Notes: a model not told the origin generated them from the sequence alone. A DNA stretch of 64,000 nt from Dongia sp. (GCF_041910485.1 NZ_JAYRQR010000034.1:9113-73112); one strand, 5' to 3'; positions 28,782 through 52,451 are shown, counted from the stretch's first letter. A program made the numbers and translations.

Positions 28782-30039
28782 ACCCGTCGCCTCGCTTCTT
28801 TTCGGTGCCGGCCTCCTCGTTCTGGGGACCGGTCTCATCGGCATCCTGCTGCCGGTCCGGATGGGGATCGAGAAAGTCTCGGCCGATATTTCCGGCCTGG
28901 TCATGTCGGCCTATTACCTGGGGTTCATGCTGGGCAGCGTGCTGGGGCAAGGCATCATCCGGCGGGTCGGGCATATCCGCGCCTTCGCTGCTTTTGCCGC
29001 CTTGGCGACAGCGACCTCGCTGGTGCATGCGCTTTTCTTCGATGTGGCCCTTTGGGGTATCATGCGCGCGCTGACGGGCTTCTGTCTCGCCGCCCTCTAC
29101 GCCACGATCGAAAGCTGGCTGAACGTCAAGACCAGCAATGAGGGACGCGGGCAGGTTCTCTCGATCTATCTGGTGACGACCTATCTCGCGACCCTGGTCG
29201 GCCAGTTGCTGATCAACGCGCTCGAAATTGAAGGGCTCGGTCTTTTCTGCCTTGGCGCGCTGTTGATGTCGCTGTCGCTGGTTCCGGTGGTCCTCACCCG
29301 GGTCGCCGGCCCGGAACTTGCCAACGTCAAGCGCTTGGGGCTGCGCGTGCTCTATAAGGCGTCGCCCTTGGGCGTCGTGGCGACCTGGGGTGCCGGCATG
29401 CTGTCCGGTGCCTTCTACGCGCTCGGTGCCATCTATGCCGGCAGCCTCAATCTCGACGTCTTTCAGATATCGCTGTTCATGGGCGTGCCGATTTTCGGCG
29501 GCTTCGTCCTGCAATGGCCGATCGGCCGGCTGTCGGACCGGTACGACCGCCGTACCGTGCTGCTGGGCGTGCTGACCGTCTGTGTCGTCTCCAGCATGGT
29601 CCTCAGCTATTTCAGCTTCAGCGGCGCTGCGTTGACGCCCTTGCTGGTGGCCGTCGTTTTTCTGGGTGGTGCCTTGGCGACCATCTATCCGATCGCCGTC
29701 GCTCAGGCCTATGACTATGTCGACCGCGCCGACATGGTGAGCGCCTCTGGTGGGCTGCTGCTGGTCTGGGCCATTGGCGGTACGGTGGGGCCGTTGGTTG
29801 CGTCTTTCTTCATGGGACGGTTCGGGCCTTCGGCCCTGTTTGTCTATCTGACGGTGGTTGCCGGCGCGATTGCAGCCTTCACCCTCTACCGCATGCTGGC
29901 GCGCCAAGCGCGGCCGTCTGCCGAACAGACGAACTTCGTTTCCATGCAGACGACCTCGGCAATTGCCAACGCACTCGATCCGCGAACCGATCCGCTGCCG
30001 GAATTCTATTACAATGACGAGGATCCGGGCGACCGCTGA
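28765..30039 (+). CDS. MFS transporter
   Basis: About 424 aa with 12 predicted TM spans and RLSDRYDRR in the loop 2-3 position. Confidence 0.8.
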   Translation: MLLALRPVASLLFGAGLLVLGTGLIGILLPVRMGIEKVSADISGLVMSAYYLGFMLGSVLGQGIIRRVGHIRAFAAFAALATATSLVHALFFDVALWGIMRALTGFCLAALYATIESWLNVKTSNEGRGQVLSIYLVTTYLATLVGQLLINALEIEGLGLFCLGALLMSLSLVPVVLTRVAGPELANVKRLGLRVLYKASPLGVVATWGAGMLSGAFYALGAIYAGSLNLDVFQISLFMGVPIFGGFVLQWPIGRLSDRYDRRTVLLGVLTVCVVSSMVLSYFSFSGAALTPLLVAVVFLGGALATIYPIAVAQAYDYVDRADMVSASGGLLLVWAIGGTVGPLVASFFMGRFGPSALFVYLTVVAGAIAAFTLYRMLARQARPSAEQTNFVSMQTTSAIANALDPRTDPLPEFYYNDEDPGDR

Positions 30040-41481: not shown

Positions 41482-42608
41482 TTACTGCGCAGGAAGGCCC
41501 GCATCGCAGCCAAGCCTTCCGGGACATAAGTGCGCCCGAAGCCGATGCGGAAGCGGTCGCTCGGTGTTGATGTCAGGTCCGAGGCGTAGAGGCTCGGTGG
41601 CAGCAGGACAATGCCGGCTTCCTCGACCAGCCGGCGGCAGAAGGTCTCGACACCGTCCTTGCCCAGATAGCGCGGGTAGGCGATGCAGCCGCCATCCGGG
41701 TGGCGCCAGTCGAAGAGATCCGGAAACTCGCCAAAGAAGGCATCGACCGCAACGAGGTTGCGCGCGATGAGGTCGCGGTTGCGGCCGATGATCTTGTCCG
41801 ATGCCTTGAGGGCGATGACGGCCAGATGCTCGCTGGGCCCGGCATTGCAGATGGAGAGGTAATGCTTCACGCGCTCCATTTTGTAGAGCAGGGCATGGTC
41901 CTTCGACGCGATCCAGCCCACGCGCAGGCCGGGCAGACCATAGGCCTTCGACATAACGCCGAGCGTCAGACCCTTCTCATAGGCTTCGATGGCGGAGGGA
42001 AGGCGGATCTCCGCAGACCGCTCAAGGCCGCGATAGACTTCATCCGAGAACAGCCAGATGCCGTGCTGGCGGCACAAGGCCACCAGTCCGTCGAAGGTTG
42101 CGCGGTCGATCACCTTGCCGGTCGGGTTGTGCGGGAAGTTGACGGCGATGAGCTTGGTGTTTGGGCGGATGGCGGCCTTCACCTTGTCCAAGTCGAGCGA
42201 CCAGTTGTTGTCGGGATCGAGGGCGACACCGCTCGTCGCGCACAGCGCCTTCGGCAGCTCCTCGCTCGATTGATAGTTGGGCGTCACCACGATGGCATGA
42301 TCGCTTTTGTCGAGCAGCGCATGCATCGCGCAGAAGATGCCTTCCTCGGCGCCGGCAAAGGCCAGGATGTCTTCCGGAACCACGCCCTGATAGGTGGCGG
42401 CGACCGCCGCGCGAAGGGCAGGGGTGCCGGTCGGCTCGATATAGTGGAGCGGCAGCTCGTCCCAGGCGGCGCGGTCTTCGGGCGTCGCCATCGCCAGCAA
42501 TTCCTGGAGGCTCAGGGTTTGCATGTCCGATGCCGTCATATGATAGCGGCAGGCGAACTCCCACTTGCCGAGATAGGTCTCCAGGCGGAAATCGGGCAGC
42601 ATGGTCAT
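41475..42608 (-). CDS. class I/II PLP-dependent aminotransferase
   Basis: Trimmed to the ATG at 42608 (MTMLPDFRLETYLGKWEF...). SKAYGLPGLRVGW contains the PLP lysine. The start overlaps the upstream stop (ATGA). Confidence 0.8.
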   Translation of the reverse strand: MTMLPDFRLETYLGKWEFACRYHMTASDMQTLSLQELLAMATPEDRAAWDELPLHYIEPTGTPALRAAVAATYQGVVPEDILAFAGAEEGIFCAMHALLDKSDHAIVVTPNYQSSEELPKALCATSGVALDPDNNWSLDLDKVKAAIRPNTKLIAVNFPHNPTGKVIDRATFDGLVALCRQHGIWLFSDEVYRGLERSAEIRLPSAIEAYEKGLTLGVMSKAYGLPGLRVGWIASKDHALLYKMERVKHYLSICNAGPSEHLAVIALKASDKIIGRNRDLIARNLVAVDAFFGEFPDLFDWRHPDGGCIAYPRYLGKDGVETFCRRLVEEAGIVLLPPSLYASDLTSTPSDRFRIGFGRTYVPEGLAAMRAFLRSNQ

Positions 42609-43249
42609 GGTGTTGTTTCCTTGAGACGGCGGGCATCGCCCAGCAAATTGTAGATAGTGGCGCGCGACACGCCCAGCGCATCGGCCACATGGAGCGCCGC
42701 GTTGCGGGTCGCAAAAAGATTCTGCGCATCGAGCGACGCCATCAACGCCACACGGTCGCTGCGATCGAGCGCCTTCAAAGTCAGCTGCTTCTCCTGCAGA
42801 AAGGCTCGGATGCCCAGATTGATCTGCTCGCGCCAATCCTGCGCGAAGATCGGCTCGGGGCGGGGCTGCTGGCTCTCGGTGAAGGCGCCGATCAGCGCCA
42901 TCGCTTTGTCGAACATGGCGAGATCGAAATTGATGCAGAGCAGCCCGACACGGCGGCCGGCCTCATCCTTCAGGATGGCGCTCACGGATTTCAGCCGGCC
43001 GCCATCGGGTGCCGCCTTTTCATAGGGGCCATAAACATCCCTCTCGCCGATCAATTCCGGATCGTCGCCGAGATGCGATGGATCGCCGATCTTGCGCTTG
43101 GAAAACGCATTCCAGATTCCCGCCACCCGGTCCGACCGCAGATCATGCACCACCACCTCCGCCTGGGGCGCCAGCAAGGCGGCAATGGCAGCGGCGGTTG
43201 GAAAATGCACGGCCAGACTGCCGGGCGCTTTGGGAAGGGTGCGGCTCAT
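42605..43249 (-). CDS. YheO/DauR-like regulator (PAS-like N-domain plus C-terminal HTH)
   Basis: 214 aa. The C-terminal HVADALGVSRATIYNLL is an HTH. It is coupled by an ATGA overlap to the aminotransferase. Confidence 0.65.
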   Translation of the reverse strand: MSRTLPKAPGSLAVHFPTAAAIAALLAPQAEVVVHDLRSDRVAGIWNAFSKRKIGDPSHLGDDPELIGERDVYGPYEKAAPDGGRLKSVSAILKDEAGRRVGLLCINFDLAMFDKAMALIGAFTESQQPRPEPIFAQDWREQINLGIRAFLQEKQLTLKALDRSDRVALMASLDAQNLFATRNAALHVADALGVSRATIYNLLGDARRLKETTP

Positions 43250-43330
43250 CTGGAGACATATGATCTAAAATAGACGAAGTGTCAAATTTGGATCTGGAGT
43301 GTTCTGCGTGCTGTCGTTCCGTAAATGTTC

Positions 43331-43360
43331 TTGACAAAACACTAGGAATGTTGTACTAAT
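43331..43360 (+). promoter_or_regulatory. orphan sigma70-like promoter facing the gene-free region
   Basis: TTGACA (43331-43336), 17 nt, then TACTAAT (43354-43360), in the only AT-rich patch of the gap. Confidence 0.45.
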
Positions 43361-43366
43361 AGAGCT

Positions 43367-43696
43367 GTGCACACATCACCCGCTCCCCATCCGGAGCCGC
43401 TCGGTTGTCCCTCGGCGCAAGTCCAGCGATGGACGCAGGCCGAAAGCATCCGCCCCTGGTTGAGAGGGGCAGGCCTGGTCGGCGGCCACAAGGCCCGACC
43501 CCCCGGATCAGCGGGTGAGCGATCCTCCGCGAGTCCCGGGTCACAGGACGCTCCCCCAGGGTTGCGGCGGTTAAGCCAGCCCCCGCCGGACCCGATGCGG
43601 TGACCGGGTTCCCCTCCTGGAGGGCAGGAAGCCATCCACGTCACAGCCGGCAACGAAACGGCTGCCATAGCTGCCCGAGCGGGTCCGGATGGGGAG
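43367..43696 (+). ncRNA. candidate structured non-coding RNA of unknown family (alternative: TIR-bounded MITE)
   Basis: 43383-43404 pairs with 43675-43696, giving 21 Watson-Crick pairs out of 22 positions. The helix encloses 270 nt with at least 5 compact GC hairpins, including a GCGA (GNRA) tetraloop. There is no credible ORF, and no hallmark motif of RNase P RNA, tmRNA, SRP RNA or cobalamin riboswitch was seen. Confidence 0.4.
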
Positions 43697-43736
43697 ACGT
43701 GGATCATCGAATGAATTTGGCGAGAGCTTTCAGTCC

Positions 43737-43853
43737 CACCCCCACCCAACCCTCCCCCTGAAGGGAGAGGGGATCTCATCGAGTTTGCTGCAGCGCGCGT
43801 GCGAATTCCGCACCAAAGCCCTCTCCCTTTAGGGGGAGGGTTGGGTGGGGGTG
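43737..43853. repeat. large inverted repeat (35-bp stem, 47-nt loop)
   Basis: 43737-43771 pairs with 43819-43853 at 35 consecutive positions: 34 Watson-Crick pairs plus one G-T. Each arm is also self-complementary. Confidence 0.85.
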
Positions 43854-43922
43854 TGGGCGCAAGCCGAATGCGGGTGCGCGCAAGCGCGCACAAGCCGCCG
43901 CGCGACGGACCTCGCCGACGAT

Positions 43923-44459
43923 CTACCCGCGCCGCATCCGATAGAGAACATGCCGCAGCAAGGGGTGATCCGCCGCCAGCATCGGGTGATCGAAATCGTC
44001 GCGCGCATCATGCGTCAGTCCCAGCCGTTCCATCACGGCGCAGGAGCGAACATTGCTGACCGTGGTGAAGGAAACAATCTCAGGAAGTTTCAACGTCCCG
44101 AAACCGAAATCGAGCACAGCGCGCGCTGCCTCGGTGGCATAGCCCTTGCCCCAATGCGCGAAAGCCAGCCGCCAGCCGATTTCGACGCAGGGCGTGAAAG
44201 GCGCCTCGAAGCGCGGGCGCGACAGGCCGACATAGCCGATGAAATCGGCAATGCCAGGAACCTCGACGGCCCAGAGGCCCCAGCCATGCTCGGCGATATG
44301 CGCCGCGATGCGATCGGCGAATGCGTCACTTTCCGCACGCGTCATCGGACCTGCCAGCGTCGCATAGACGCGCGGATCGTTGTTGAGCGCGGCGAAGGGC
44401 GCCTTGTCCGTTTCCCGCCACGGGCGCAGCAGCAGCCGCTCCGTGACGAGAGTTGCCAT
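43923..44459 (-). CDS. GNAT N-acetyltransferase (RimJ/RimL-type, Acetyltransf_3-like)
   Basis: 178 aa with ERLLLRPW and HWGKGYATEA. The ATG shares one nucleotide with the argS TAA (TAATG). Confidence 0.82.
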   Translation of the reverse strand: MATLVTERLLLRPWRETDKAPFAALNNDPRVYATLAGPMTRAESDAFADRIAAHIAEHGWGLWAVEVPGIADFIGYVGLSRPRFEAPFTPCVEIGWRLAFAHWGKGYATEAARAVLDFGFGTLKLPEIVSFTTVSNVRSCAVMERLGLTHDARDDFDHPMLAADHPLLRHVLYRMRRG

Positions 44460-46291: not shown

Positions 46292-47338
46292 TCAGAACGC
46301 GACGTCGCCAGTCGATGTGCGGTCGCGGCGGCGGGCGCGTTTGGTGGCCTGGACCGGGTCCTCGCCGGACAATTGGGCGGTGGCGCCTGCCGTGACCGGA
46401 CCCAGGCGGGCGACGATGGTCTCGATGGTGGGTTTTTCACCCGGCGTATAGGAATTGAGGGCACTGCGCATATGGACCAGATGCTCGGCCGAGGTGCCGC
46501 AGCAGCCGCCCACGATCCGCGCCCCGGAATCCCGCGCCAAGCGGCTGTAATCCGCCATCAGGTCCGGGGTGCCGTTATACTTGATCTTGCCGTTCTCGAA
46601 GAACGGGATGCCGGCATTTCCTTTGGCGATGATGACATCGCCCGGCCGCGCCGCCGCCGACAGCTGCACGATGGTAGCGGTCAAATCCGAGGCGCCGACG
46701 CCGCAATTGGCGCCATAGGCCACCGGCTTCGGGTCCAGCGTGTGGACGAAATCGACGAAATCGGCGGGGCTCAGGCCCATCATGGTGCGCCCGTTGGTGT
46801 CGAAGCTCATGGTCGTGACGATGGGGAGGCCCGTCGCGGCGGCGCCCTTTACGGCAGCACTGACTTCTTCCTTGGCGGACATGGTCTCGATCCAGATGAC
46901 GTCGGCACCGCCGGCTTTGAGAGCCTCCGCCTGCTCGCGGAAGGCGGCAATGGCGTCTTCTTCGGTGAGGGCGCCGAGCGGCTGCAGCAGCTCGCCCGTC
47001 GGGCCCATCGAGCCAGCGACCACCACGTCTCGACCGCTGCGGTCGGCAACCTTGCGGGCCAGCTCGGCCGCGCGCTTGTTGATCTCCAGGACCCGGTCTT
47101 GGGCGTTGTGCAGCTTCAGCCGATAGCGCGTTCCGCCGAAGCTGTTGGTCAGAATGATGTCCGACCCGGCCTTCACGAAGTTCTCGTGCAGCGCCTCGAT
47201 CCGCTCCGGATGGTCGAAGTTCCACAATTCCGGCGCGTCGCCCGCCTGCAGGCCGACCTGGAACAGGTTGGTCCCCGTGGCGCCATCGGCCATCAGGAAG
47301 GGCTTTTCCGCCAGCAGGCGCAGGAAACGGTTGGTCAT
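46292..47338 (-). CDS. homocysteine S-methyltransferase family protein, betaine--homocysteine methyltransferase-like
   Basis: 348 aa with LMADGATGTNL and the zinc ligands in GGCCGTSAEH. No B12-binding or cap domains, so it is not MetH. Confidence 0.78.
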   Translation of the reverse strand: MTNRFLRLLAEKPFLMADGATGTNLFQVGLQAGDAPELWNFDHPERIEALHENFVKAGSDIILTNSFGGTRYRLKLHNAQDRVLEINKRAAELARKVADRSGRDVVVAGSMGPTGELLQPLGALTEEDAIAAFREQAEALKAGGADVIWIETMSAKEEVSAAVKGAAATGLPIVTTMSFDTNGRTMMGLSPADFVDFVHTLDPKPVAYGANCGVGASDLTATIVQLSAAARPGDVIIAKGNAGIPFFENGKIKYNGTPDLMADYSRLARDSGARIVGGCCGTSAEHLVHMRSALNSYTPGEKPTIETIVARLGPVTAGATAQLSGEDPVQATKRARRRDRTSTGDVAF

Positions 47339-47384
47339 CGGGCAGATCCTAACTCGCGGCGCCTTTGTTCACGCCATGTTCATC

Positions 47385-47404
47385 ATATAACGAGATTGTT
47401 ATAT
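47385..47404. promoter_or_regulatory. palindrome ATATAAC-N6-GTTATAT between the BHMT-like gene and chaC
   Basis: Perfect 7-bp arms at 47385-47391 and 47398-47404, lying 47-66 nt upstream of the BHMT-like ATG. Confidence 0.35.
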
Positions 47405-47467
47405 AGCTCGCAACCTAAGGCTTTCCGCCCTCTGGTTCAAGGCAAGAGATTGGTTAAACTGCGCCTC

Positions 47468-48121
47468 ATGGCCGCCGACCAAATCCCCTCCGACCCAGCC
47501 CAGTATTGGCCCGACACGCCGGCCCCCGGCTGGCTCACGGACGAGGAGCGGCAGGCCTCGCTCGACGGCATTCTCGCTGAGCGGGACGGGCCGATCTGGA
47601 TCTTCGGCTATGGCTCTCTGCTGTGGCGCCCGGCCTTTCAATCGGTTGAGAGCCGGCTTGCGACCCTCACCGGTTATCACCGCCGCTTCTGCCTGGTGAT
47701 GCGCCGCTTCCGCGGGACCGAGGAATGTCCGGGCCTGATGCTGGGCCTCGATCGTGGCGGCCTCTGCCGCGGCATGGCCTTCCGCCTCGACGACGTGACG
47801 GTCGATGAGGACCTGAAAGGTTTGTGGCGGCGCGAGATGGTGACCGGCGGCTATCGCCCACGCTGGGTCAAGCTGAAGACACCCTTGGGACCCTTGCGCG
47901 GCATCACCTTCGTCGCCAACCGTGCCAATGAGCGCTACCTGAAACCGCATTCCCTCGACTATGCCGCCGAGATGATTGCCGGCGCCTGCGGTCCCGTCGG
48001 CAGCAACGCCGAATATCTGCACGCCACGCACGAGCATCTGCTCGGCCTCGGCATCAACGACCGCGGCCTCGCCAGCCTCGACAAGCTGGTGCGCGAGAAG
48101 TGCGCCGCGATCAAGCGCTGA
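47468..48121 (+). CDS. chaC: ChaC-family gamma-glutamylcyclotransferase
   Basis: Only the last 217 codons of the 1222-codon ORF 44453..48121 are used, from the ATG at 47468. Motifs WIFGYGSLLW and GLMLGLD. Confidence 0.82.
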   Translation: MAADQIPSDPAQYWPDTPAPGWLTDEERQASLDGILAERDGPIWIFGYGSLLWRPAFQSVESRLATLTGYHRRFCLVMRRFRGTEECPGLMLGLDRGGLCRGMAFRLDDVTVDEDLKGLWRREMVTGGYRPRWVKLKTPLGPLRGITFVANRANERYLKPHSLDYAAEMIAGACGPVGSNAEYLHATHEHLLGLGINDRGLASLDKLVREKCAAIKR

Positions 48122-50782: not shown

Positions 50783-50814
50783 GGAAGACCTCTATTTTAG
50801 ACGCGGGCGCAGCT

Positions 50815-50845
50815 TGTCATGGCCTGCGCAGATCGGCCATGCACA
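50815..50845. repeat. half-copy (single module) of the REP family
   Basis: tgtcatggcctgcgcagatcggccatgcaca has the same gtcat-stem-loop-stem architecture. Confidence 0.6.
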
Positions 50846-50847
50846 TG

Positions 50848-51378
50848 TTAGATATTCCAAAGCCCCGTGGTTTCCAATGTCGGAATATCATCTTTCATTG
50901 TGATTTTATAAAATGCGCCACCGCCGGCCAGCAATCCCCAAACCGAGCCAGCAAACCATGTCACTTCTCTGGTCTGAGCATCCTCGTCTCTCTCTCCGAA
51001 AAATGTGATCGCGCGCGACCCATCAGATGTCAAAGTCTCTCCCATATTGTTCTCGTGGCAATTTGCTCCATCAACAAACGTCAGCTTGGCAACTCCAGCT
51101 ACCGCTTTGCTCAGTGAGTCGAGCAAAGCTGCACTTACTGGCAGCGGCTTATTCTCCGATTGAATTGATGTGCACAGTATCAGCGGCATATCATTCTTGT
51201 CGCGATGGAGAGTTTTGATTTGATCCATGAAGACAATGTAGGCCTCTTTCTCAATCGGTGAAAGATCGTCGCCAGGTGATGAAGTTGGGGATGTGCTAGC
51301 ACAAGCGCTGCAGACCATCGCAATCAAGCACCATGCACGGCAGTAGCCGAGTGTTGTCATTGGTGTTCTGTGAAGCAT
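50848..51378 (-). CDS. hypothetical secreted protein or lipoprotein (low-GC islet)
   Basis: The ATG at 51378 is preceded by AAAGGA. N-terminus MLHRTPMTTLGYCRAWCLIAMVCSACAS. No family was recognised, and local G+C is about 47-53% by hand count. Confidence 0.45.
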   Translation of the reverse strand: MLHRTPMTTLGYCRAWCLIAMVCSACASTSPTSSPGDDLSPIEKEAYIVFMDQIKTLHRDKNDMPLILCTSIQSENKPLPVSAALLDSLSKAVAGVAKLTFVDGANCHENNMGETLTSDGSRAITFFGERDEDAQTREVTWFAGSVWGLLAGGGAFYKITMKDDIPTLETTGLWNI

Positions 51379-51498
51379 TGTTGTCCTTTTCGATCTCAAT
51401 AAATAGGCGGATGGGACTCCACACTAAATGCTGCGGTCCTGCGGCCGACTTGGGTATGGGACCAGGAGAGGGAAGCGAATACGATACTCGTACCATCT

Positions 51499-51533
51499 TG
51501 TCATGGCCCGCGCAGGCGGGCCATCCACGAGTT
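51499..51533. repeat. half-copy (single module) of the REP family
   Basis: tgtcatggcccgcgcaggcgggccatccacgagtt has the same 35-nt layout and ccacgagtt tail as the left module at 9395-9429. Confidence 0.7.
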
Positions 51534-51788
51534 GCTTCCTTCATGCCACCAGTAACACGCGGGTCCCTTGCCTGTGCGGTCGATGACGAATGGAAATTGG
51601 CTGGCGTTGGGAGCATTGAAGAGTTTGTGCGCATTGCTGGATGCAAGGGATAAACAGGAGGCAGTTACCACGTCAGTGTGCTGCGCGCTGCCAGAAATGG
51701 TTGATTATCTTGTTTCAACTGTAGTTCACTGCAGCAGCAGCGGCGAGCGGGGGGCGTCTGTGCTGTGGCCGACAAGTGGAGTGATTCT

Positions 51789-52199
51789 ATGGACGATTGG
51801 ACGATGAGCGATGAACGAGAGTTTATGGAGAACTTGCTGAACGAGCGATTTAACTTCTATCTCGTCGTTTATGGCGCAGTCGTCGTGAGTGCAGGTACAG
51901 TGGAGTCTTGGTTCGCAAAGATGATAATTCTTATCGTAGGCGCAATACTACTGGCGCTACTCCTACTCACCATTGGTCGTGCACAGGTGAAGTTGGACTA
52001 TATTATTGGAGAACTGTGCGCAACAAAGACAGCTGTGCGGCTGGGACACTGCCATCCGGTTGCCGTGATCGACGAGAGGGCGAGACACTCAAAGACCTTC
52101 CCTCGGGGTAGGAGGCGGCTGGTTGGATTCTATATTCCTGCCTTCTGCTTTGTAACAGTCTATTTGGCCGCAGCATTCGCCTCCTGCTTTGTGATTTGA
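51789..52199 (+). CDS. hypothetical three-TM membrane protein (low-GC islet)
   Basis: ATG at 51789 with GGAG 7 nt upstream; 136 aa. TM spans FYLVVYGAVVVSAG, MIILIVGAILLALLLLTI and YIPAFCFVTVYLAAAFASCFVI. Confidence 0.45.
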   Translation: MDDWTMSDEREFMENLLNERFNFYLVVYGAVVVSAGTVESWFAKMIILIVGAILLALLLLTIGRAQVKLDYIIGELCATKTAVRLGHCHPVAVIDERARHSKTFPRGRRRLVGFYIPAFCFVTVYLAAAFASCFVI

Positions 52200-52398
52200 A
52201 CTCGCGCAGGAGATATTCAATACAGATGCCTGTGTCTTGGCGGTTTAGGAAGTTAATGTCTCGCCTTGTGCTGGCTTCGCTTGGCGTTGCAATTCTTCTC
52301 TATTTTGTTGTGTGGTTGGCTGCTGGCGTCTAACGTCAAATGTCGGTCCATGAAACCGCGTGCCGGTGCGCCGAAAACAATCGTATAGAGCAAAAAAA

Positions 52399-52422
52399 CG
52401 CCCCGGTCTTTCGGCCGGGGCG
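52399..52422 (-). terminator. bidirectional intrinsic terminator (strong on the minus strand after the DMGDH-like gene)
   Basis: cgccccgg (52399-52406) pairs with ccggggcg (52415-52422). The minus strand is followed by TTTTTTT and the plus strand by tttcgttt. Confidence 0.8.
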
Positions 52423-52451
52423 TTTCGTTTGGTCTCCGCTGAATCCCTCGC

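Follow-up and report, generated by a model that had tools for sequence, protein, structure and literature searches.

A multi-copy, promoter-bearing intergenic element of Dongia as a candidate family of large structured non-coding RNAs

Organisation of the locus

The 64,000-nucleotide stretch of DNA analysed here, referred to below as the window, belongs to a species of Dongia, a soil and sludge bacterium of the Alphaproteobacteria (GCF_041910485.1 NZ_JAYRQR010000034.1:9113-73112). It contains a 673-bp gap between two minus-strand genes, one encoding a YheO-like PAS/HTH regulator (yheO-like, 42605–43249), whose nearest homologues are proteins of Dongia species, and the other a GNAT acetyltransferase (43923–44459), with argS as a further neighbour. 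The gap holds the element that is the subject of this study, a repeated unit in which a promoter-like block is followed, after some 7 nt, by a region of ~330 nt with a predicted 22-bp closing helix around about nine hairpins. A further ~140 nt of the gap (43726–43864) is occupied by a separate palindrome resembling a repetitive extragenic palindromic (REP) sequence.

An earlier note on this DNA had described the locus as an orphan plus-strand promoter feeding a helix-closed region free of open reading frames (ORFs). That description is upheld by the conservation of the promoter, the covariation of the helices, the strand counts, the lack of a conserved frame and the lack of a match in Rfam. 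The note had also called the gap the longest non-coding stretch in the window; this is doubtful, since the segment at 50783–52451 is longer (1.67 kb) and has no ORF matching Pfam above threshold.

The repeated unit and its promoter block

Comparison with homologous sequences, which carry L-numbers (L002, L043 and so on) where they must be told apart, places the unit between ~43316 and ~43697. Its left edge lies ~15 nt 5′ of the −35 hexamer and its right edge coincides with the end of the closing helix. Because the similarity among family members starts ~15 nt upstream of the −35 hexamer, the promoter block belongs to the repeated unit. Inverted repeats were sought at the ends of the unit and none was found: the left arm of the helix lies 67 nt inside it and the ends are not complementary. 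With a promoter beyond the left arm and nothing past the right arm, the unit is asymmetric, which is the layout of a gene and not that of an element bounded by inverted repeats.

The promoter block, GTTC-N7-GTTCTTGACA-N17-TACTAa, is nearly invariant and always oriented into the structured region. Its fuller consensus is GTTCC-tatTT-GTTCTTGACAAg-N4-C-TAGGAATTTGATACTAnT, in which a perfect −35 hexamer is separated by 17 nt from a −10 that most copies have in TG-extended form (TGATACTA in most paralogues). The information profile drawn from ~39 unique promoter copies climbs sharply at GTTCC. In the window, the −35 hexamer TTGACA is at 43331–43336 on the plus strand and, after the 17-nt spacer, the −10 region TACTAAT is at 43354–43360. 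The former is kept in every family copy but one (TTGACG), and TACTA in nearly all of them. The promoter proposed in the earlier note is thus present where it was placed and is near-invariant in ~39 unique copies, but a sigma-70 consensus scan did not call it. The scan passes over it because TACTAA has no T at position 6 of the hexamer; what speaks for a promoter is that the sequence hardly varies across the copies. Within the spacer, TAGGAAT (43343–43349, plus strand) is nearly invariant across copies as T(A/G)GGAAT. Together with an upstream TTCCTA present in many copies it makes an inverted repeat, and it may be a second operator.

The predicted transcript is a non-coding RNA of ~330 nt (43367–43697, plus strand), its 5′ end placed from the −10 region and its 3′ end from the limit of conservation. 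The helix is followed by a variable tail (43697–43725, plus strand), rich in purines (GA) in most paralogues but less markedly so in the window copy.

The predicted fold and its covariation

The closing inverted repeat noted earlier, with plus-strand arms at 43383–43404 and 43675–43696, pairs at 21 of its 22 positions and encloses 270 nt. A search for the arms across the 64 kb, allowing up to three mismatches, returned these two sites only, against 0.00 expected by chance. RNAalifold, run on 20 and then on 24 copies, gave the closing helix together with a set of hairpins. From this a model of 67 pairs was curated, in which one RNAalifold helix was replaced and a possible pseudoknot was added. 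The helix dropped joined alignment columns 234–240 to 289–294; a hairpin between columns 288–294 and 305–312 was preferred because it displays a true C-G to U-A switch.

Over the 67 curated pairs, 97.4% of the cells are paired. The helices are maintained in homologous loci through compensatory changes: 24 pairs have changed on both sides, compared with 15.0 ± 1.8 in shuffled alignments, and none of 500 shuffles reaches 24. Control models in which the partners were slid by 1–3 columns give 2–8 such pairs. The significance derived from the shuffles is overstated because the paralogues are interrelated; it is the slid controls, taken with the number of independent pair types, that make a conserved fold hard to avoid. 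In the closing helix itself, CG/UA alternatives occur in ratios of 13:10 and 18:4, and UA/CG in a ratio of 17:5.

Five internal hairpins had been proposed from the window sequence, and all five lie where they were placed and recur in the 24 homologues. Compensatory changes are seen in four of them; the other has one A-U/G-C switch, identified by eye. Reading from the 5′ end on the plus strand, the structured region begins with a module, CGGC-GCAA-[variable hairpin]-GCAG-GCCG (43413–43442), which holds the GUCCA-GCGA-UGGAC hairpin. The flanks of this module are 100% conserved; not even the divergent L043 or the short forms in L002 and L004 depart from them. The distal stem (helix 4) covaries. 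There follow the hairpins GCCCCU/AGGGGC (helix 5, 43452–43470; UA17, CG4, UG3), GGUCG...CGACC (helix 6, 43477–43500), with three pairs changed on both sides, and GGAUC...GAUCC (helix 7, 43505–43525; UA19/CG5). The central block (43526–43557), CCCGCGAGUCCCGGGUCACAGGACGCUCCCC in most copies and UCCGCGAG... in the window, is nearly invariant in 18 of the 24 copies. The variants L006, L069 and L122 hint at alternative helices here; two pairings are possible and the alignment is out of register.

Beyond the central block lie the hairpin GGGUUG...CAGCCC (helix 8, 43559–43582), which has a variable loop, UA12/CG11 and four pairs changed on both sides, the hairpin GGACCCG-AUGCGGUGAC-CGGGUUCC (helix 9, 43588–43612; CG14/UA10) and the hairpin UGGAGGGC...CCAUCCA (helix 11, 43618–43638), which has five pairs changed on both sides. 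The loop GUGAC (43600–43604) may form a pseudoknot with GUCAC (43640–43644); this putative helix 10 is 99% paired, with variation on one side only. The last hairpin, CAGCCG-GCAACGAAA-CGGCUG (43644–43664), corresponds to GGCCG-AAACGAA-CGGCC in all copies, the window having an A-U to G-C change. It was left out of the formal pair count, the alignment being out of register at this point.

Two features of the 5′ region stand outside the helices. An 8-nt perfect palindrome, TGTGCACA (43366–43373, plus strand), lies at the predicted transcript start and would form approximately the first eight transcribed bases. The octamer is self-complementary in every subfamily even though its sequence differs (TGTGCACA, GTGCGCAC, TGCATGCA and TGCGCGCA), a pattern that rests on only three or four independent events. 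Self-complementarity that outlasts sequence change suggests either a symmetric operator or intermolecular pairing of the RNA, that is dimerisation. Most copies also have AUCACCUCC in the leader, a sequence identical to the 3′ end of 16S rRNA. Two subfamily members carry it twice, and the window copy has CACCCGCUCCCC. In the paralogues L018 (4860–4899) and L038 (7880–7917), a 28-nt insertion in the 5′ leader duplicates the CAUCACCUC motif.

Strand of the structured RNA

The element folds better than its shuffled counterparts on each strand, with z = −4.1 for the plus and −3.7 for the minus strand. The full set of predicted pairs does not reveal the strand, since either one yields alternative helices of its own, and the assignment made here uses only the closing helix, which is supported by covariation. 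In this helix G:U occupies 34 cells and A:C three, an excess that favours the plus strand. These counts, with the orientation of the sole conserved promoter, favour the plus strand as the one transcribed.

Coding capacity, known families and gene context

The earlier note had judged the region to be non-coding, and comparison bears this out, no frame being conserved among the copies. Core lengths run from 300 to 326 nt with every residue modulo 3 represented, gaps are mostly of 1–2 nt, and stops occur in all six frames in several copies. A search for a short ORF conserved across the copies found none.

Nor was any known RNA family recognised, in agreement with the earlier reading. The Rfam 15 models, which include RNase P, tmRNA, 6S, SRP, cobalamin and other riboswitches, HEARO, the group II intron and alphaproteobacterial small RNAs (sRNAs), gave no hits in the whole window at the gathering threshold. 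At E < 10, searched with the window copy and two divergent copies, nothing covers the element. ARAGORN found no tRNA or tmRNA, and nothing similar is described in the literature that was searched for a Dongia RNA motif or a LexA-controlled multi-copy alphaproteobacterial RNA.

The neighbours of the copies are unrelated housekeeping genes (argS, mutS, acrB, cobT, gatCA, LysE, aminotransferase, methyl-accepting chemotaxis protein (MCP) and iolB genes), and in ~14 of the 17 copies that are informative a convergent gene lies downstream. No recurrent functional class of same-strand downstream gene, of the kind expected of a riboswitch or leader, was found. Among the Pfam-scanned neighbours at ~14 copies there is no transposase, reverse transcriptase, IscB or TnpB.

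Copy number, distribution and evolution

A pattern derived from the best-conserved block was scanned over one genome per GTDB species; pattern hits other than those given here were chance matches. Nine copies were found in Dongia sp. NJASGE2bin.4, nine in 'Proteobacteria bacterium NC_groundwater_310' and seven in Dongia sp. szas3bin.16, while another Dongia metagenome-assembled genome (MAG) has two, one of them 94% identical to the window copy. Among 84 pattern hits in a metagenome scan, an nhmmer profile recognised nine true members. The element was absent from plasmids and phages searched by blastn and from viral contigs scanned with the pattern. Within the 64-kb window no second copy was found; tiny matches at 28851–28972 are unsupported by nhmmer. 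Several MAG contigs and a Logan contig matching the window stop at or within the element. Because contigs break at such a near-identical repeat, the copy numbers are lower bounds, and three of the genomes carry at least 7–9 units each, intergenic, beside unrelated housekeeping genes and usually with a convergent gene downstream.

The syntenic loci of D. rigui, a Dongia MAG and two JGI MAGs hold a homologous element in matching place and orientation; in the syntenic alignment, which includes two loci with a shortened form, the promoter hexamers are invariant. Four loci are occupied in more than one genome: argS in six, mutS in two, LysE in two and Aminotran_3/M23 in two. Identity is 94–99% within a genome and 70–80% between orthologous copies at the argS locus. 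The same loci are shared and yet genome-mates are more alike, which is the pattern of concerted evolution; the simplest reading is that old paralogues have been homogenised by gene conversion. A genome may hold three or more subfamilies side by side. The argS–yheO site is empty in more distant relatives, namely L050, where the spacer is 133 bp, L049 (D. mobilis) and L051, and the family was thus gained or lost within the Dongiaceae.

Two departures from the common form were seen. L002 and L004 have a shortened form of ~225 nt at the argS locus. L043 (1459–1960) is a divergent, longer paralogue of ~450 nt lying 5′ of a same-strand MCP gene; it shares the promoter, the 5′ palindrome and the CGGCGCAAG...CGCAGGCCG module with the family and differs in its interior.

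A putative LexA box at the left edge

The left edge of the unit is formed by a GTTC-N7-GTTC direct repeat (GTTCCGTAAATGTTC, 43316–43330, plus strand), which abuts the −35 hexamer. In Caulobacter and other Alphaproteobacteria the LexA box has this form, GTTC-N7-GTTC (PMC12700426). About two thirds of the copies, the one in the window among them, match the motif exactly, and the distal GTTC half-site stays in place even in near-identical paralogues with differing spacers, which suggests that it is constrained beyond simple homology. If the repeat is a LexA operator, DNA damage would raise expression of the RNAs. We put forward this assignment, and with it SOS control of the RNAs, tentatively, as somewhat less probable than the contrary.

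A second GTTC-N7-GTTC, followed by the palindrome TATAAC-N6-GTTATA, occurs at 47367–47405, in the intergenic space from which an S-methyltransferase gene (46292–47338, minus strand) and a ChaC-like gene (47468–48121, plus strand) diverge. The entire block is kept at the orthologous site in L014 and L025 and may be an operator. It lends no validation to the SOS box, because the gene that follows it is ChaC-like.

Interpretation

We consider it probable, on the comparative evidence, that this locus is a stand-alone RNA gene, one of a multi-copy family of structured non-coding RNAs that is restricted to the lineage and has not previously been described. RNA polymerase with the housekeeping sigma factor would start near 43366–43367 and transcribe rightward, and the RNA would remain untranslated. 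The long helix would join the ends of the RNA and could be a site for RNase III, as are the processing stems of rRNA precursors; alternatively, the transcript may continue to the REP-like hairpin found after most copies. More speculatively, the RNA may act in trans, as a protein-binding scaffold or as a base-pairing RNA, and its functional parts may include the C/U-rich single strands resembling an anti-Shine–Dalgarno sequence (5′ AUCACCUCC in most copies) and a dimerising 5′ octamer. A bolder version, in which this ~330-nt RNA represents a new class produced by a LexA-repressed, concertedly evolving gene family, serving as a dedicated SOS RNA arm with the octamer as a dimerisation code, seems to us improbable.

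Several observations weigh against the proposal of an RNA gene family or against its SOS component. The −10 sequence, TACTAA, is non-canonical and uncalled by the consensus scan, and no intrinsic terminator was found 3′ of the element. In the hairpins common to the predictions for both strands, G:U (21) and A:C (15) are too close to decide the strand. About one third of the copies have ATTC or GTTT as the first half-site of the putative LexA box. A tblastn search with E. coli RecA and LexA against the window and the collected sequence of its relatives revealed no recA or lexA locus, and the sole other conserved GTTC-N7-GTTC in the compared sequence flanks no classical SOS gene. Finally, the narrow taxonomic range, the near-identical genome-mates, the contigs that break inside the element, the presence or absence of the element at the argS–yheO site (empty in L050, L049 and L051) and the frequent REP-like palindromes all fit a selfish repeat.

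Such a repeat would be non-autonomous mobile DNA akin to a miniature inverted-repeat transposable element (MITE) or a REP sequence, whose arms and hairpins serve a transposase, possibly as single-stranded DNA, with the promoter as a passenger and any RNA incidental. The multi-copy state, with genome-mates 94–99% identical, is what this predicts, as are MAG and Logan contigs that end inside the element or at its edge, an argS–yheO site that is filled in some relatives and empty in others, and copies in the intergenic spaces at gene ends alongside REP-like palindromes. Co-evolving terminal repeats would likewise show arms that change together. Against a mobile element, nine internal hairpins covary, and the closing helix accepts G:U and not A:C (34 versus 3). 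Conservation reaches 67 nt past the left arm but no further than the right one, so the arms do not bound the unit, and the promoter and the distal GTTC are separately constrained. The earlier note had anticipated that dispersed copies with target-site duplications would point to a MITE. Many copies do exist, but duplications are not evident: the flanks of 22 copies showed no shared direct repeats, the empty site in L050 being too diverged for a matched comparison of empty and occupied sites. No transposase gene lies near any of the copies whose neighbours were scanned, and four shared loci are occupied across species, each copy having the sequence type of its own genome. On this balance we regard a mobile element as rather unlikely. 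It would in any case be an unusual selfish repeat, with an inward promoter, a conserved RNA-like fold and persistence at orthologous loci.

The remaining explanations retain an RNA and assign it a different role. In an SOS-induced type I toxin–antitoxin or small-protein locus, a long 5′–3′ helix would silence a short toxic ORF, as in the tisB, dinQ and hok mRNAs. The multi-copy locus and the LexA-box-like motif in its promoter are compatible with this, the CUCC/GGAG extension of the long-range helix could mask a ribosome-binding site, and the purine-rich tail 3′ of the helix resembles a Shine–Dalgarno sequence. No ORF is kept in position or frame, however, the indels are mostly of 1–2 nt, the most conserved block is invariant at all codon positions, the purine-rich tail is followed by no consistent start codon and there is no conserved antisense promoter, which leaves a toxin locus very unlikely. 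Equally slight, in our estimation, are the prospects of a guide or scaffold RNA for IscB or TnpB (an omega-RNA, HEARO-like), or of a template RNA for a reverse transcriptase encoded elsewhere in the genome. At ~300 nt, highly structured, multi-copy and with variable sequence directly after a conserved scaffold, the element has the appearance of one, and HEARO RNAs are themselves multi-copy and often ORF-less. Against this, neither HEARO nor any other Rfam model hits it even at E < 10, no gene for IscB, TnpB or a reverse transcriptase was found in the 2.5 kb around the copies scanned, the 5′ leader, unlike a guide, is conserved, and the 3′ tails share a purine-rich composition not expected of real guides. 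Its own upstream promoter and fixed orthologous loci tell the same way. Least probable of all, and in our view extremely so, is a minus-strand element, either a leader or riboswitch of an operon comprising the yheO-like regulator and an aminotransferase, or a 3′ untranslated region of a GNAT/argS transcript. Both flanking genes are on the minus strand, on which the fold is nearly as good as on the plus strand, and the minus-strand string GGGAAYCCGGU is faintly reminiscent of cobalamin elements. At E < 10, though, no model for cobalamin or any other riboswitch matches, and yheO has a conserved promoter of its own between the element and its start codon. Other copies adjoin unrelated genes, there is no conserved promoter on the right-hand side, and on the minus strand the closing helix would contain A:C mismatches.

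Relation to known systems

Each of the nearest analogues, namely HEARO-type RNAs, rRNA-like stems, SOS type I toxin mRNAs and promoter-bearing MITEs, fails in at least one tested defining feature. HEARO, the IscB omega-RNAs and other RNAs associated with insertion sequences resemble the proposed Dongia RNA in being ~300 nt long, highly structured and repeated many times in a genome, often with no ORF alongside. The Dongia element differs in having no Rfam HEARO match and no nearby IscB or TnpB, and in having its own promoter, a conserved 5′ end and orthologous loci. With rRNA-type families it shares a strong promoter, a helix of ~22 bp joining the ends, like the RNase III stems of the 16S and 23S precursors, and several genes that are dispersed in a genome and yet remain alike there; it has no sequence or structural homology to rRNA, is far smaller and is confined to one genus-level lineage. 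The SOS RNA loci tisB/istR-1, dinQ/agrB and symE/symR likewise combine a LexA-box-like operator with long-range 5′–3′ pairing, but the Dongia locus has neither a conserved ORF nor an antisense partner.

The promoter-bearing MITEs Correia/NEMIS and ERIC are, like the Dongia element, dispersed intergenic repeats with inverted arms and a promoter, whereas the arms of the Dongia element do not bound the unit, its conserved interior covaries and its positions are orthologous. The cuckoo/CcsR sRNAs of Alphaproteobacteria, which are ~70–150 nt in length with two hairpins and C/U-rich anti-Shine–Dalgarno motifs, also occur as several paralogues in unrelated 'nests' and have CCUCC-type motifs (PMC4615179). 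The Dongia RNA, by comparison, would be ~330 nt long, with about nine hairpins inside a closing helix, and has no Rfam similarity.

Large structured bacterial RNAs without a family are rare, and the functions of OLE, GOLLD, ROOL and HEARO tended to surprise once they were characterised. The present family is experimentally tractable, with a covariation-supported fold of ~330 nt, many alike copies, a conserved and apparently regulated promoter and cultured representatives in the lineage. In Caulobacter, sRNA genes induced by DNA damage were found to have no SOS box (PMC6237742). Were the LexA operator real, the Dongia family would provide SOS-controlled non-coding RNAs in an alphaproteobacterium, where the Caulobacter study found none (PMC6237742), and a dedicated SOS RNA arm, if borne out, would be unreported in Alphaproteobacteria.

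Other features of the locus and window

A promoter-like block, AATTTGACAnTTCGTCTAATTTAGACTAT, lies on the minus strand at 43262–43290, just 5′ of the yheO-like gene. It sits between the element and the yheO start codon and is invariant across the Dongia relatives, including those that are free of the element. In Dongia mobilis (L049, 1793–2911), a called ORF of 372 aa with no Pfam hit lies between the GNAT gene and yheO, in the place taken by the RNA element in other Dongia species.

The long segment at 50783–52451 has a GC content of 48–55%, compared with 62% for the window, and contains only short ORFs of up to 183 aa, none of which matches Pfam above threshold. The segment could be of foreign origin or harbour small genes that are not annotated.

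The REP/REPIN-like palindrome at 43726–43864 has 46-nt arms that are 87% complementary and a core of CCCCCTGAAGGGAGAGGG...CCCTCTCCCTTTAGGGGGAGGG; Rfam returned only spurious miRNA matches to it. REP-like palindromes related to it lie 3′ of the predicted RNA gene in ~17 of 22 copies and upstream of some copies as well. A second dispersed palindromic family of REP type, GGATCCCCGCGAAAGCGGGGATGACA, is found between the RNA gene and its neighbours in several genomes (L006, 2800–3000; L004, 2810–3000; L041, 4090–4130; L045, 2040–2080).

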